From positions 6,304,001 through 6,368,000 of the forward strand of contig JBKAGP010000001.1 of the NCBI GenBank assembly GCA_046290465.1: DNA of 64,000 nt. The letters are read 5' to 3'. Numbering within the stretch: position 1 is the first letter of the stretch; every line of letters starts with the position of its first letter. The stretch is from Planctomycetota bacterium (GTDB lineage: Bacteria > Planctomycetota > UBA1135 > UBA2386). The translations under genes and the position numbers were made by a program. The notes beneath the pieces were generated by a model, which saw only the letters and a program-made list of their open reading frames with translations, searched no databases and was not told where the DNA came from. Positions 5,235 to 14,613 of this stretch are shown piece by piece.

Positions 5235-6146
5235 TCAGCCGCGCGGGTGCAGCCGCTGGTGCACGGCGCGCAGCCGCTCGTGGTCGACGTGCGTGTAGAT
5301 CTGCGTCGTCTGCAGCGACGCGTGGCCGAGCATCTCCTGCACGCTGCGCAGGTCGGCGCCGCCGGCGACCAGGTGGGTGGCGAACGAATGGCGCAGCGCG
5401 TGCGGCGAGCAGGCGACGTCGAGGCCGGCGTCGGCGGCGGCCTTGCGCACGACCTGGTAGATGCGCACGCGGTCGAGCGGCCGGCCGGTGCGCGACAGGA
5501 ACAGCACGTCGCCGGGATCGCGCCCGGCCCGCTGACGCAGCTTCGGCCGCACCTGCTCGCGGTAGCGCTGCAGCCACTGCAGCGCGACGTCGGCGATCGG
5601 CACCAGCCGCTCCTTGTTGCCCTTGCCGAACGCGCGCAGCATGCGGTGCTGCTCGACGATGCTGGTGGTGCGCAGGTTGGTGACCTCGCTGACGCGGCAG
5701 CCGGTCGCGTAGAGCACGTGCAGGATCGCGAGGTCGCGCACCGCGAGGTCGCCGTCGGCGTCGCGCTGCAGCATGCGTTCGACGTGGCGGCGGCTCAGCG
5801 CCTTGGGCAGCTTCTGCTCGAGCCTGGCGCCGAGCAGGCCGTCGGTGACGTCGTCGTCGGCCAAGCCCTCGGCGTGCAAGAACCGGTAGAAGCCGCGGAT
5901 CGCCGCCGCGGCGCGCGCGACCGACGCCGGCGCGTGGGTCTCGAGCAGTTCGCCGAGGTGGCGGTCGATCCGTTCGCGGTCCGGCAGCCGGTCCTCGTCC
6001 CGCAGCAGCCGCTCGAGGTCATTGCGGTAGGCGGCGACGGTGTGGCGGGATACCTGCAGTTCGGCGCCGAGGTGCACCAGGAAGTCCGCCATCGCCTGCT
6101 GGGGCCGCGCCCCGGGCTGGTCTCGGTCCGCCGCATTCCGCCGCAT
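5235..6146 (-). CDS. xerD: Site-specific tyrosine recombinase XerD/XerC family
   Basis: LYATGCRVSE, GKGNKERLVP, SPHALRHSFATHL, DLRSVQEMLGHASLQTTQIYTHV and a C-terminal HPR. Start uncertain (6146 or 6092). Confidence 0.85.
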   Translation of the reverse strand: MRRNAADRDQPGARPQQAMADFLVHLGAELQVSRHTVAAYRNDLERLLRDEDRLPDRERIDRHLGELLETHAPASVARAAAAIRGFYRFLHAEGLADDDVTDGLLGARLEQKLPKALSRRHVERMLQRDADGDLAVRDLAILHVLYATGCRVSEVTNLRTTSIVEQHRMLRAFGKGNKERLVPIADVALQWLQRYREQVRPKLRQRAGRDPGDVLFLSRTGRPLDRVRIYQVVRKAAADAGLDVACSPHALRHSFATHLVAGGADLRSVQEMLGHASLQTTQIYTHVDHERLRAVHQRLHPRG

Positions 6147-6325
6147 CCGGGCATTCTCGACCGCTCGGCACGTCCAGGAAAGAGAAGAACGGCGATCGCG
6201 TCGGGCCTGTCTTGACCGTCTGTCTGGGCCTCCGTATCGTCCTCGCCCCTCGACCGGGGGTTGTTCCGCGGTCGACGCCATCCAACCGTGTCCGAACGGC
6301 TGTCGAACCCAGGCAGCCCAGCAAC

Positions 6326-6766
6326 ATGCCGAAGCCGACCAAGACCGAGCTGAAGAAGTACCAGGACATCCTGAAGCTGCAACTCGCCACGCTGAAGGGA
6401 GATGTAGGCTCGATGCGCGACGAGGCGCTGCGTGCCTCGGACCAGGACGCCTCGGTGGACCACCTCGCCGACCAGGGCACCGACAACTACGACCAGGGCT
6501 TCATGCTGAGCCTGATCGAGAACGAGGAGGAGACCATCAAGCTGATCGAGGAGGCGCTCGATCGCATCGATGGCGAGGGCGACTGGCCGTTCGGCGCCTG
6601 CCCGATGTGCCTCGAGGAGGCCGAGGAGGCCAAGGCGGCGAAGAAGAAGACCGGCAAGAAGGCCGCCGACGCCTGGATCCCGAAGGCCCGCCTCGAGTAC
6701 CTGCCGTGGGCGCGCTACTGCGTCGCGCACCAGGAGACCGAGGAACGCAACCGCGAGAGCGCGTGA
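6326..6766 (+). CDS. TraR/DksA family zinc-finger transcriptional regulator
   Basis: Coiled coil with HLADQGTD tip; IEEALDRI..G..FG.CPMC...IPKARLEYLPWARYCVAH; adjacent to lspA. Confidence 0.85.
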   Translation: MPKPTKTELKKYQDILKLQLATLKGDVGSMRDEALRASDQDASVDHLADQGTDNYDQGFMLSLIENEEETIKLIEEALDRIDGEGDWPFGACPMCLEEAEEAKAAKKKTGKKAADAWIPKARLEYLPWARYCVAHQETEERNRESA

Positions 6767-7371
6767 GCGACACGCCCGAGGCCGCGGCTGCCGCCGCCGG
6801 GGGCGAACGGCCCCAGGCAGCGACGGAGCCGAAGACGCTCGCCGGCAAGTGGTGGTTCTGGCTGCCGTGGCCGCTGCTGGTCGTCGCCGACCTCTGGAGC
6901 AAGGCGGCGGTGTTCGCCTTCATGGCGGAGAAGCATCCGGACCTGGTCGAGGAGCGCCGGCCGCCGCACCTGGTCTTCCAGACCGACGTCCTGCAGTTCG
7001 ACCTGGTGACCTGGGGCAACACCGGCACCATCTGGGGGCTGTTCCAGGACGGCACGCTGGTGCTGATGATCCTGCGTTGCTTCGCGCTGGTCGGCCTGCT
7101 GTGGTTCGTGCGCACGACGTCGCGCACCGCGCGGCTACAGCTGCTGGTCCTGAGCCTCGTGTTCGCCGGGGCCGTCGGCAACCTGTACGACAACTTCGTG
7201 CGCGCCGACCGCTCGGTCCGGGACTTCCTGCACTTCTCGGGTTCGTGGCCGTGGCAGTGGGACTTTCCGGCGTTCAACGTCGCCGACTCGTGCATCACGG
7301 TGGGGGCGATCGGCCTGTTCTTGCTGTTGTGGCGGGACGATCGCGCCCCAAACAAGAAGCAGGTATCCTGA
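6763..7371 (+). CDS. lspA: Lipoprotein signal peptidase II
   Basis: DLWSK, NTG, GAVGNLYD, VRDF and PAFNVADSCI motifs; GTG overlaps the upstream TGA. Confidence 0.93.
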   Translation: MSDTPEAAAAAAGGERPQAATEPKTLAGKWWFWLPWPLLVVADLWSKAAVFAFMAEKHPDLVEERRPPHLVFQTDVLQFDLVTWGNTGTIWGLFQDGTLVLMILRCFALVGLLWFVRTTSRTARLQLLVLSLVFAGAVGNLYDNFVRADRSVRDFLHFSGSWPWQWDFPAFNVADSCITVGAIGLFLLLWRDDRAPNKKQVS

Positions 7372-7384
7372 TCCCGGTCCCATC

Positions 7385-8332
7385 GTGCTCCAGACCCGAC
7401 TCCACAGCCTCGAACTCGACAACCCGGTGCTCAGCGCGTCGGGCACCTTCGGGTCCGGCTGGGAGGGGCGGCAGTTCTCCGACCTCGGCATGGTCGGCGG
7501 GCTGGTCAGCAAGACGGTGACGCTGGCGCCGCGGCCCGGCAACCCGCCGCCGCGCATCCAGGAGACGCCGTCGGGCATGCTGAACGCGATCGGCCTCGAG
7601 AACAAAGGGGCCGACCACTTCCTCGCCGAGACGCTGCCGCGCATGCACGAACTGGCGGCCGGCGGCCGCCGCGACGGCCGCCACGGCCCGCGCGTGATCG
7701 TCAACATCGGCGGCTCCGACGACGAACTGCAGCAGCTGGCGCAGCGCTTCTGCGAGGCCGGCGTCGACGCGCTCGAGGTCAACCTGTCGTGTCCCAACGT
7801 CGCGCACGGCACGCGCGCCTCGACCGACCCGGAGCTGACCGAGCGCACGGTCGCCGCGGTCAAGCGGGTCGCGACCGTGCCGGTGTTCGCCAAGCTGACG
7901 CCGAACATCGCCGACGTCGTGCCGATCGCGACCGCGGCCAAGGCCGGCGGCGCCGACGGCGTCACGCTGATCAACACGCTGGTCGGCATGGCGATGGACT
8001 GGCGGAAGCGCCGGCCGGTGCTCGGCAACGTCACCGGCGGCCTGTCGGGGCCGGCGGTCAAGCCGGTCGCGATGCGCATCGTCTACCAGGTCGGCAAGGC
8101 GCTGCCGGACCTGCCGATCCTCGCGGTCGGTGGCGCCCACTCGGCGCAGTGCGTGCTCGAGTTCCTGTGTGCGGGTGCCTCGGCGGTGCAGTTCGGCACC
8201 GCGATGTTCTCGGACCCGACGCTGATGGTGCGCGTCGCCGACGAGCTCGAGGAGCTGCTGGCCGCCGCCGGCACCACGGTCGCAGACCTGCGCGGTGCGG
8301 CGCACCGCGAGGTCGCGGAGGTGACGCGATGA
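7385..8332 (+). CDS. pyrD: Dihydroorotate dehydrogenase, family 1 (B-type catalytic subunit)
   Basis: ASGTFG, GNPPPRI.ETPSGMLNAIGLEN, EVNLSCPN, KLTPN, INT and GGLSGPAVKP motifs. Confidence 0.93.
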   Translation: MLQTRLHSLELDNPVLSASGTFGSGWEGRQFSDLGMVGGLVSKTVTLAPRPGNPPPRIQETPSGMLNAIGLENKGADHFLAETLPRMHELAAGGRRDGRHGPRVIVNIGGSDDELQQLAQRFCEAGVDALEVNLSCPNVAHGTRASTDPELTERTVAAVKRVATVPVFAKLTPNIADVVPIATAAKAGGADGVTLINTLVGMAMDWRKRRPVLGNVTGGLSGPAVKPVAMRIVYQVGKALPDLPILAVGGAHSAQCVLEFLCAGASAVQFGTAMFSDPTLMVRVADELEELLAAAGTTVADLRGAAHREVAEVTR

Positions 8333-9168
8333 AGCTCACCTCGCTGACCCGGGAGATGGTCGAGCGCGCGGTCTCGATCTATCAGGACCTCGCCTACGGA
8401 TCGGTCGCGCCGAGGCGCCGCATCGCAACCGGCGCCGACGGCGGCAAGGGGCCGCTCGGCATGTTCCACAAGGAGCAGGTCGAGTGCGTGCCGGGCCACG
8501 CGTGCCAGCGCTTCAGCATGCGGCTCGGCAACCGCAACTACCCGTTCATGAAGCTGCTCCTGCAGGAGCACCTGATCGCCGGCGAGTTCTTCTTCGCGGT
8601 CGACACCCACGACCAGATGGAGATCGGGCCGGAGTTTCCCGACTACGAGCAGTGGATGGCGGTGCGCAAGTTCAACTGCGAACTGAAGCGACGCATCGAG
8701 GACAGCTTCGAGCAGGCCGGCCTGGACACGGCGGCGGTCGTGCGCGGCCTGATCGTCGACGAGTGCCGCGACGACGGCAAGCCGTGCCGCGGTCTGGTGC
8801 TGATCGTCGACGACGAGGAGGACCTCGCCGCCGCGGTCGAGGCGCTGATCCAGCGGGCCGGCTTCCGGACCTGCAAGGTGCACGACGGCCGTTCGGCGCT
8901 GGTCGCCACCCGCGAACTGGCGCCGGACCTCGTGCTGCTCGACTACGAACTGCCCGAGCTCGACGGCCTGCAGGTGATCGACGAGCTGCGTCGCGACGCC
9001 GCGACGCGCGACGTGCCGGTGCTGCTCAACAGCGCCGCGCGCATGACGATGGCCGACATCCAGCGCGCCGACGGCTTCCTCAGCAAGCCGTTCCCGGAGA
9101 GCCTGCTCAACGCGATGATCGACCGCGTGCTCGACAAGCACGCGGCGGGCCGCGGGAGGCGCGCGTGA
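8329..9168 (+). CDS. Response regulator with an unrecognised N-terminal domain and a C-terminal receiver domain
   Basis: Receiver motifs LIVDDEE, DLVLLD.ELPELDG and FLSKPF. The ATG overlaps the pyrD TGA. Confidence 0.8.
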   Translation: MKLTSLTREMVERAVSIYQDLAYGSVAPRRRIATGADGGKGPLGMFHKEQVECVPGHACQRFSMRLGNRNYPFMKLLLQEHLIAGEFFFAVDTHDQMEIGPEFPDYEQWMAVRKFNCELKRRIEDSFEQAGLDTAAVVRGLIVDECRDDGKPCRGLVLIVDDEEDLAAAVEALIQRAGFRTCKVHDGRSALVATRELAPDLVLLDYELPELDGLQVIDELRRDAATRDVPVLLNSAARMTMADIQRADGFLSKPFPESLLNAMIDRVLDKHAAGRGRRA

Positions 9169-9482
9169 GCACCGACGAGAGCAACGCGGCGGCGCCGCCG
9201 CGCAGCGTGCGCGCCACCGGCTTCGTGTCGGCGGTGCTGCTGGTGGTGCTGTTGGCGACGACCGGCCTGCCGGTCGACGCGCAGCATCTGGGTGACGAAC
9301 AACAGGTCGCCTGCTGCGTGGTGCAGCGCACCCACAGCGCCTTCCGGGCGTGCGAACCCGAGGACCTCGCCGGCGCGGACACCGCGACCATCGAGGTCGC
9401 CCCGCCCAGGGTCGCGCCGCGCACCGCGCGGGTCGACAGCTGGGGGCTGCCGCCGCCGCGCGCACCGACGAACCGACGCTGA
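9165..9482 (+). CDS. Small exported protein upstream of secA; candidate translation-arrest (SecM-like) leader
   Basis: GGGAGG RBS; GTG overlaps the upstream TGA; 105 aa; hydrophobic signal VSAVLLVVLLATTGLPVDA-Q; C-terminus WGLPPPRAPTNRR. Confidence 0.65.
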   Translation: MSTDESNAAAPPRSVRATGFVSAVLLVVLLATTGLPVDAQHLGDEQQVACCVVQRTHSAFRACEPEDLAGADTATIEVAPPRVAPRTARVDSWGLPPPRAPTNRR

Positions 9483-9502
9483 TCGCGTCCATCCGTTCGT
9501 CC

Positions 9503-9529
9503 ATTCCACGTTGTCTATTCCACGTTGTC
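9503..9529. repeat. 13-bp direct repeat ATTCCACGTTGTC x2 (14-bp period) in the secA leader
   Basis: Exact copies at 9503-9515 and 9517-9529. Confidence 0.8.
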
Positions 9530-9628
9530 CAATCGCGGCGCGTGGTGCCGGTGCGCGCCCCGACGGCGCTTTCCGGCTACCGGTCCCAGACCGGCGCGCC
9601 GCCAGATCCAGAACACCATCCGTCCGTC

Positions 9629-12661
<3,033 letters not shown>

Positions 12662-12671
12662 TCGCCCCGAC

Positions 12672-14039
12672 ATGTCGGACCAGCATCGCGAACCGGCCGC
12701 CGAGCACCTCGGCCCGAGCATGCCGCTGCCTCGCAGCGGCGTGCGCGGCTGGCTGACGATGGGCCTCTACCAGCCGCTGTTCGCGTTCGCGTTCCTGCTC
12801 TACAGCCCGGTGCTGCTGTGGCGGCTCTTGTTCGCGCCCAAGGGCCAGCGCACCAGCATGCGCGAGCGCATGGGCTTCGTGCCGCCGCGCGCCGACGCGT
12901 CGCGGCCGTTGGTCTGGATCCACGGCGTCTCGGTCGGTGAGGTCAAGGCGGCGAGCAACTTCGTCGCCAAGCTGCGCGCGCAGCGGCCCGACGTCGACCT
13001 GGTGATCTCGACCACGACGCCCAACGGCAGGCTGGTCGCGCACCAGGAGTACCCGGACCTGCCGGTCGTCACCTACCCGCTGGACCTCGCCAACTTCCCG
13101 GCGCGGGCGCTGTCGCGGCTGCGGCCGCGCTGCGTGTTGCTGATGGAGCTCGAGATCTGGCCGAACTTCCTGCAGGCCGCCCGCAAGCGCGACATCCCGG
13201 TCGCGGTCATCAACGGCCGCATCAGCGAGCGCACCTTCAAGGGCTACCGGATGGCGCGCGGGCTGCTGCCGCAGCTGGACCTGATCAGCAAGTACTGCGT
13301 GCAGGACCTCGCCTACCAGCGGCGCCTGCTCGACCTCGGCGTCGACCGTTCGCGCGTGTTCGTGACCGGCAACATGAAGTACGACAGCGTCGTGATGGGG
13401 CAGCACCAGCAGGCCGCCGCCGAGCTGCGGCCGTGGCTCGCGCCGGCCGGCGAACGGGTGCTGGTGACCGGCTCGACCCACGACGACGAGGAGGCCTGCG
13501 TGCTGCAGGCGGTGGCGAAGATCCAGGCGCGCTGCGACCTCGCGGTGCGCACCGTGCTGGTGCCGCGCCACCCCGAGCGTTCGTCGTCGATCTGCGAAGT
13601 CGTGCAGCAGCGCGGCCTGCGCCCGGTGCGCTGGAGCGAGGTCCGGCAGGCGCCGCCGCCGCTGCAGCCCGAGGACGTCGTCGTGGTCGACACCATCGGC
13701 CAGCTGCAGCGCTTCTACGCCGCCTGCGACGTCGCGTTCGTCGGCGGCAGCCTGGTGCCGCACGGTGGCCAGAACATGCTCGAACCCGCGGCCCAGGGCC
13801 GCGCGGTGATCTTCGGCCCGCACACCACCAACTTCCGACGCGACGTCGAGCTGCTGCTGGCCGCCGACGCGGTGGTGCAGGTGCCCGACCGCGAGCGGTT
13901 CGTCGACGGCCTCGAACGGCTGCTGCGTGACGACGCGCTGTGTCGCGCCTACGGCGAACGGGCCCGCCGCGTGATCACCCAGAACCAGGGCGCGACCGCG
14001 CGCACGCTCGACCTCGTCGTCGATCTGGTCGGCGCCTGA
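12672..14039 (+). CDS. waaA: 3-deoxy-D-manno-octulosonic acid (Kdo) transferase
   Basis: WIHGVSVGE, ELEIWPN, INGRIS, TGNMKYD, GSTH, VPRHPER and FVGGSLVPHGGQNMLEPA motifs. Confidence 0.95.
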   Translation: MSDQHREPAAEHLGPSMPLPRSGVRGWLTMGLYQPLFAFAFLLYSPVLLWRLLFAPKGQRTSMRERMGFVPPRADASRPLVWIHGVSVGEVKAASNFVAKLRAQRPDVDLVISTTTPNGRLVAHQEYPDLPVVTYPLDLANFPARALSRLRPRCVLLMELEIWPNFLQAARKRDIPVAVINGRISERTFKGYRMARGLLPQLDLISKYCVQDLAYQRRLLDLGVDRSRVFVTGNMKYDSVVMGQHQQAAAELRPWLAPAGERVLVTGSTHDDEEACVLQAVAKIQARCDLAVRTVLVPRHPERSSSICEVVQQRGLRPVRWSEVRQAPPPLQPEDVVVVDTIGQLQRFYAACDVAFVGGSLVPHGGQNMLEPAAQGRAVIFGPHTTNFRRDVELLLAADAVVQVPDRERFVDGLERLLRDDALCRAYGERARRVITQNQGATARTLDLVVDLVGA

Positions 14040-14112
14040 GCCCGCGCGGGCGGCCGCCTCATTGGGCGGCGGCTCATTGAGCGGCCGGGGCCGTTTGGCT
14101 ACCGTCCTCGCG

Positions 14113-14613
14113 ATGAACTGTCCGTGCACCAGTGGTAAGCCGTTCGCCGAGTGCTGCGAGCCGATCCTGACGGGGGCCGAGAAGGCCAAGACGGCCGAGC
14201 AGCTGATGCGCTCGCGCTACACCGCCTATGCCACCGGCAACGTCGACTGGATCATCGAGACCCAGTCCGAGGACGGCCGCAAGTTCGTCGATCGCAAGGC
14301 CACCGAGGAGTGGTCGAAGCGCGCCGAGTGGCACCGGATGGAGGTGCTCGAGGTGCAGCAGGGCGGCGAGGACGACGACGAGGGCTTCGTCGACTTCAAG
14401 GCCTACTACACGCTCGGCGGCGAGGACATCACGCACCACGAGGTTGCCTCGTTCCGCAAGGAGGACGGCACCTGGTACTTCGTCGACGGCGTCGAGGTCA
14501 AGCCGCGGCCGTTCAAGCGCCTCGACAAGAAGGTCGGGCCCAACGAGAAGTGCCCGTGCGGCAGCGGCAAGAAGTTCAAGAAGTGCTGCGGCAAGCCCGG
14601 CGTGGCCAACTGA
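14113..14613 (+). CDS. ychJ: YchJ family SEC-C motif protein
   Basis: N-terminal CPCTSG....CCEP; TAEQLMRSRYTAY; HHEVASF...WYFVDG; C-terminal GPNEKCPCGSGKKFKKCC. Confidence 0.92.
   Translation: MNCPCTSGKPFAECCEPILTGAEKAKTAEQLMRSRYTAYATGNVDWIIETQSEDGRKFVDRKATEEWSKRAEWHRMEVLEVQQGGEDDDEGFVDFKAYYTLGGEDITHHEVASFRKEDGTWYFVDGVEVKPRPFKRLDKKVGPNEKCPCGSGKKFKKCCGKPGVAN

Follow-up and report, generated by a model that had tools for sequence, protein, structure and literature searches.

A short open reading frame lies between a response-regulator gene and secA

The window, which is the whole 64,000-nucleotide stretch of DNA that was analysed, contains a co-directional gene run (6326–14613) that comprises a dksA/traR-like gene (assigned by a weak match below cut-off), lspA, pyrD, a response-regulator gene, a short upstream open reading frame (uORF), secA, a Kdo-transferase gene and a YchJ/SEC-C gene. 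Three junctions in this run are 4-nt start/stop overlaps (6763, 8329 and 9165), and a XerD-like tyrosine recombinase gene, recognized by eye from its catalytic motif, is divergent from the operon on the minus strand (5235–6281). The response regulator (8329–9168, plus strand) consists of an N-terminal domain without family and a receiver domain (Pfam Response_reg, E 1.6e-19). Neither a Pfam family above cut-off nor an Atlas match at or above 0.9 was found for its N-terminal ~150 aa (8329–8790), and this region is well conserved in the lineage despite the absent family match. secA (9629–12661, plus strand; Pfam SecA_DEAD, E 4e-122) is the only full secA found in the genome, and its product carries a long Pro/Gln/Ala-rich linker ahead of the SEC-C motif (approximately 12300–12600).

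The uORF (9165–9482, plus strand) starts with a GTG at 9165, ends with a TGA at 9480–9482 and encodes a 105-aa candidate RAP-type arrest peptide, the C-terminus of which is WGLPPPRAPTNRR. The Shine-Dalgarno sequence GGGAGG (9154–9159, plus strand) is located within the final codons of the regulator gene, 5 nt ahead of the GTG, and the 16S tail ACCTCCTTT is intact in this genome. The secA ATG at 9629 lies 146 nt past the uORF stop. The sequence-only reading had described a 105-codon frame with this ribosome-binding site 146 nt upstream of secA, present in the ORF track only as the tail of a longer frame; the coordinates are confirmed on the sequence, and the longer frame is one of 332 aa (8484–9482). 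That reading did not state that the uORF GTG overlaps the TGA of the regulator gene (GTGA, 9165–9168). Among the 78 relatives whose locus includes the regulator gene, 71 (69 in a stricter count) retain this overlap in frame, which fixes the uORF start. Pairing of Shine-Dalgarno strength precedes the uORF in 65 of 72 relatives whose uORF start is overlapped.

Throughout the genome, 8 of 51,419 stop-to-stop frames of at least 60 aa pass a loose filter for a motif near the stop plus a hydrophobic core, and only two of these, the secA uORF and one shadow-like RGP frame, stand alone and have a gene in the same orientation no more than 450 nt away. By eye, no signal-plus-RAP uORF is present before secDF or yidC in the genome (2052370–2053100; 6421680–6422410); the fused secDF sits after a ribosomal protein L19-like gene and yidC after a metallophosphoesterase-like gene, again as judged by eye.

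The uORF is specific to one lineage and patchy within its order

To define its distribution, the 800 nt upstream of secA were examined in three sources of loci: 30 loci from a search of 41 genomes of relatives, 48 stretches from relatives and a 151-genome class sample (a subset of the genomes), and 79 loci that a search with the regulator protein recovered. A uORF was counted when R-[A/G]-P occurs near its stop with a hydrophobic core 35–100 residues before it, in loci with at least 500 nt upstream. Seven loci from the regulator search and L022, which are without a secA start, were excluded, as was L002, which offers only 174 nt upstream, though the motif is present there.

A matching uORF precedes secA in 34 of 34 loci of the same family, the window's own included, in 72 of 72 loci found via the regulator gene and in three of four loci of the sister family f7, and is missing from all 38 loci examined in seven other families. 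One of these 38, L149 of family f10, passed the motif filter and was ruled out as the C-terminus of the regulator itself. In these families secA directly follows the regulator gene, except in f9, where it follows pyrD, and across the order secA is preceded by one or the other of these two genes. The uORF is therefore patchy within the order, being present in its own family and f7 and absent in seven, and the earlier suggestion of a lineage-specific frame upstream of secA is supported.

The peptide joins a predicted export signal to a C-terminal motif selected as protein

Residues 1–39 (9165–9281, plus strand) form a predicted Sec signal peptide on the grounds of hydrophobicity, charge and homologues. 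Specifically, basic residues at positions 13 and 16 are followed by a hydrophobic run at approximately 20–35 and by V-D-A/Q at 37–40, with predicted cleavage after VDA. Positive charge precedes the hydrophobic core in 56 of 71 homologues, whereas a Tat motif is found in none of the 71 and a lipobox-like sequence in two. Across 8 codons of the signal core, pN/pS is 0.12 (11 genus-level loci). A close homologue carries a SignalP-6 signal call at 1–33 in the supplement of Fujiwara 2024 (PMC10987492); the export signal proposed earlier stands as a prediction.

The following linker (9282–9440, plus strand) is variable, with 21% mean column identity among 57 homologues. It had been called short; the linker itself stands, yet approximately 60 residues (62 aa) separate the predicted cleavage at residue 39 from Pro101. 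From the end of the hydrophobic core to the P-site Pro, the median distance in homologues is 71 aa, and the signal-to-motif length falls within the range of Sec monitors. In the homologue at L013 (3498–3839, minus strand), the linker seems frame-shifted and then restored before the motif, either by assembly error or by compensating frameshifts. Taken together, conservation is confined to the signal and to the ~15 C-terminal residues of the peptide.

The conserved end is the motif G94-L95-P96-x-x-R99-A100-P101-T102 (9444–9470, plus strand). Counted back from the RAP proline over 79 distinct loci, Gly occurs at −7 in 54, Leu at −6 in 67, and Pro at −5, −4 and −3 in 74, 45 and 48, respectively; the R, A/G and P of the motif are fixed partly by definition of the search pattern, and related loci are not independent. 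At the sequence level, the motif of the uORF family is G-L-P-x-x-R-A-P-[T/D/stop]. Its 12 codons show a pN/pS of 0.05 in frame versus 1.9 and 3.2 in the other two frames (11 genus-level loci, without L009 and L013), and judged from these substitution patterns the motif is under selection as protein. Between near-identical assemblies from public runs, 8 positions of the uORF vary, all outside the hydrophobic core and the motif.

The window peptide also contains L95-P96-P97-P98, and it could be argued that the peptide is a polyproline staller of the uA_LPPP type with RAP as a secondary element, given that uA_LPPP is a tested staller before secA elsewhere in Planctomycetota (PMC10987492) and that the genome has two EF-P matches (found along with two matches to the Rho RNA-binding domain; contig positions 4457735, 2780499, 6242206 and 1269936). 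Of the 79 loci, however, just 19 contain LPPP and 21 contain PPP, most of them within the subclade of the window, and polyproline is therefore not the conserved element. A profile search returned no LPPP-only peptides, and 132 of its 135 short matches carry R[AG]P. Additionally, a script of Fujiwara 2024 classes an LPPP-bearing UBA2386 ORF as RQH-like and keeps it out of uA_LPPP (PMC10987492). We consider a polyproline stall highly improbable at this locus and reject it as the conserved element. Of the predicted conservation of LPPPRAP with a variable middle among relatives' secA uORFs, the C-terminal RAP and the variable middle hold, while LPPP does not. A conserved frame before secA that combines an export-like signal, a variable middle and a terminal RAP motif is arranged as a monitoring substrate would be.

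The residue after RAP follows the A-site rule of ApcA

The position after RAP is occupied in the 79 loci by Thr (32), Asp (21), a stop codon (11), Gly (5), Ser (4), Cys (3), Pro (2) or Ala (1). ApcA remains arrested when the A-site residue is G, P, C, N, T, S, D or A, whereas the 11 other residues named for it abolish arrest (PMC7897499). All 68 sense residues after RAP fall in this permissive set, versus a background of 52–62% in flanking sequence. The profile search gave 137 matches, made up of two long spurious ones (P0006 and P0136, repetitive proteins that were discarded), three without the motif, 21 already included and 111 new. In the new matches, 101 of 101 sense residues are permissive and 10 peptides end at RAP, with the reservations that the profile includes the +1 column and that an end at RAP may be a truncation there.

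The permissive pattern is not one inherited state, because a FastTree tree of 78 secA N-termini requires at least 23 changes of the residue after RAP, and RAP-stop, present in 11 of the 79 loci, is found on several branches. Pro is rare after RAP (4 of 190) despite 70% GC; because Pro strengthens ApcA arrest, this rarity is consistent with selection for a moderate stall. Taken together, the exclusively permissive residues point to a likely ApcA-type stall with Pro101 in the P-site. In the register that we infer from ApcA and from RQH toeprints, Pro101 (9465–9467, plus strand) would occupy the P-site and Thr102 (9468–9470, plus strand) the A-site.

The C-terminus of ApcA, GRPQPRAPG (PMC10987492), aligns with G-L-P-x-P-R-A-P-small and matches it at G(−7), P(−5) and P(−3). 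ApcA arrest requires Arg at −6 (R98; PMC7897499), whereas this position in the uORF family is Leu in 67 of 79 loci and Arg in two. For Thr after RAP (RAPT), the arrest data come from ApcA alone (PMC7897499), and only RAPP and RGPP are reported to stall robustly across contexts (PMC12992588, PMC10951233). On the other hand, all tested RQH members stalled in a B. subtilis-ribosome system, with the toeprint at the third motif residue (PMC10987492). Stalling of the uORF peptide is likely as far as its sequence tells.

These observations also bear on the idea that the uORF encodes an ordinary small exported or membrane-anchored protein, the C-terminal motif of which acts after synthesis without any stall. 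Such a protein would fit the translational coupling to the operon, which is typical of ordinary genes, and most RAPP-like motifs in ordinary proteins gave no stall (PMC10987492). It does not fit a conservation limited to the two ends of the peptide, nor a residue after RAP that obeys a ribosomal A-site rule and is replaced by a stop on several branches, nor a frame that always lies directly before secA. Moreover, the 105-aa product has no Pfam match, and no Pfam or NCBIfam family matches more than one of 57 homologues. We regard an ordinary protein as quite unlikely.

No hairpin switch is predicted in the spacer, and the secA start is predicted to be open

The non-coding spacer of 146 nt (9483–9628, plus strand) is laid out as a pyrimidine-rich stretch with a 14-nt tandem duplication, a GC-rich stem domain and an open, G-poor leader without a Shine-Dalgarno sequence. 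It is poorly conserved in an alignment of 14 close loci. The duplication (9503–9530; ATTCCACGTTGTC core) is missing in three of four near-identical run assemblies. A Shine-Dalgarno sequence precedes secA in only one of 40 close-clade loci (39 of 40 are without) and in 25 of 39 more distant loci. The secA start is predicted to be more open than those of approximately 97% of 300 sampled, crudely called genes in the genome.

Masking a ribosome footprint at the RAP codons in 72 of the 79 loci (7 with long spacers were left out) changes the predicted opening energy of the secA start by +0.2 kcal/mol on average, with a median of 0 and a value of −0.1 in the window. By at least 1 kcal/mol, opening becomes easier in 11 of the 72 and harder in 14, no different from control masks. 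Pairing of the footprint with the next 60 nt is at shuffle level (15.3 versus 16.0 pairs; 36 of 79 loci above), and the fold of the window does not surpass that of shuffles (z −0.57 and 0.07). A SecM-like hairpin switch on secA was not found in these three tests and is rejected as far as equilibrium predictions reach, co-transcriptional folding being outside their reach. ApcA, ApdA and ApdP are likewise described without a hairpin that hides the ribosome-binding site (PMC7897499).

A scan of 9000–9800 found no promoter or terminator, a weak test for a GC-rich lineage, and no RNA run screened contained more than 0.08 of the sequence words. Although the window spacer is C-rich, within the top 13% of 695 crude spacers, the median of the family is the same as in controls, and a Rho site was rejected as a trait of the family. 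The close-clade secA leaders without a Shine-Dalgarno sequence (9604–9628 in the window; loci such as L046 and L058) carry repeated CATTCC/TCCGTC words. These words also occur more often than expected before other starts in the genome (18 versus 3.7 and 49 versus 16, with crude gene calls), which suggests that this is probably a lineage-wide leader style without Shine-Dalgarno sequence.

A proposed model for control of SecA by the uORF

Based on these results, we propose that the uORF is likely a secretion monitor, in which a predicted stall at R99-A100-P101 would last until export pulls on the signal, and a long stall would raise SecA. Translation would resume at the overlapped GTG once ribosomes finish the regulator gene. 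The ensuing arrest, which we regard as very probable, would place Pro101 in the P-site and Thr102 in the A-site; it would follow the weaker ApcA-type mode, which needs a small A-site residue and contacts of G-L-P farther up the tunnel, rather than the RAPP mode. At this point the signal peptide, approximately 60 residues away and outside the tunnel, would probably engage SecA/SecYEG, and the resulting pull would end the stall. In the last and least supported step, which we favour only slightly, poor export would prolong the stall and so increase SecA. Because the secA start is already predicted to be open, the output would probably run through the transcript, by way of its stability or of read-through, or through folding during transcription, rather than by Shine-Dalgarno unmasking.

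An open secA start that is independent of the footprint would also suit a different role, in which stalling of the peptide would serve to tether secA mRNA to the translocon; synthesis of SecA would then take place at the membrane, with its amount little changed. The same layout of signal plus stall would serve this purpose, and SecM is reportedly credited with such a localising role in work by Nakatogawa from 2005. Sister families, however, do without the uORF, and in the sole RQH member for which regulation has been tested, induction of the downstream gene goes via a hairpin (PMC10987492). We consider this tethering role improbable and retain the secretion monitor as the preferred reading. 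A broader picture is more speculative: the lineage may use weak, tunable RAP stallers that avoid an A-site Pro (Thr, Asp or stop, with at least 23 switches) and that control SecA without a Shine-Dalgarno switch, via transcript fate or anchoring of the mRNA at the translocon, with the input wired to the response regulator by translational coupling.

Comparison with known systems

The uORF is real, conserved and probably functional, and belongs to a known kind of system and an already listed group; the surprise is accordingly low. It is not SecM, not ApcA and not uA_LPPP.

Like SecM of E. coli, it is a uORF with an export signal and a C-terminal Arg-Ala stall motif directly before secA. SecM has the arrest sequence FxxxxWIxxxxGIRAGP, an essential A-site Pro and a hairpin that hides the secA Shine-Dalgarno sequence (PMC10987492), none of which is found in the window uORF, and no SecM family match is obtained. 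The stem-loop that hides the target ribosome-binding site in SecM, MifM and VemP, which act as monitoring substrates, is likewise absent from the equilibrium predictions. With uA_LPPP, which is a tested staller and precedes secA in Phycisphaerales and related orders of Planctomycetota (PMC10987492), it shares the phylum, the position before secA, a signal peptide, a length of ~105–125 aa and L-P near the end. As listed in that source, uA_LPPP stalls within LPPP and lacks RAP in 7 rows, whereas in the uORF family PPP is variable and RAP is fixed; LPPP/XPPP is present in the window copy, but only 19 (LPPP) and 21 (PPP) of the 79 homologues have it.

ApcA of Actinobacteria is alike in its G-x-P-x-P-R-A-P-small end, in needing no Pro after RAP and in its permissive set (PMC7897499), and the window uORF has the same R-A-P followed by a small, non-Pro residue. 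As described there, ApcA precedes yidC2, has membrane segments, carries Gly or Ser after RAP and needs Arg at −6; the uORF family precedes secA, has a Sec-type predicted signal and carries Leu at −6. The DUF6412 Pfam model matches none of 57 members. Since no Pfam match links ApcA with the uORF family, the likeness is probably convergent.

The closest counterpart is uA_RQH_UBA2386, which occupies three rows of supplementary file 9 of Fujiwara 2024 (GTDB r202 Planctomycetota, class UBA1135, order UBA2386) and shares position, layout and motif class with the window uORF; none of the 20 uA_RQH plasmid rows comes from UBA2386 (PMC10987492). The RQH motif list of that study includes RAPT, RAPA and RAP-stop (PMC10987492). 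The window uORF is shorter than 300 aa (105 aa), lies on the same strand directly before secA (146 nt), and has an N-terminal signal or TM segment by hydrophobicity and charge, a listed RAPP-like motif at its C-terminus (RAPT; 34 of 34 family loci) and a signal-to-motif spacer of more than 30 aa (62 aa). Because it shares all four of these sequence characteristics of the group, it is a further member of uA_RQH_UBA2386, and not a new kind of monitoring substrate. The three listed members carry RAPA, RAPG and RAPS (PMC10987492), and the one ending in SWGLPPPRAPASARS is the uORF of locus L043, the secA of which is 89% identical to that of the window over 300 aa.

We have not found the T/D/stop pattern, the match to ApcA or the regulator overlap discussed in the literature, although the per-group logos in the Supplementary Information of PMC10987492 may show them. 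Relative to the three listed members, the present set comprises 79 distinct loci and 111 further proteins, mostly with Thr, Asp or a stop next to RAP, and adds the conserved overlap with the regulator and the lack of a hairpin switch. The family thereby adds a natural allelic series of ~190 sequences with Thr, Asp or stop after RAP, and it is a case for the question raised for ApcA, ApdA and ApdP (PMC7897499), namely how arrest peptides control a downstream gene without a hairpin that hides its ribosome-binding site.
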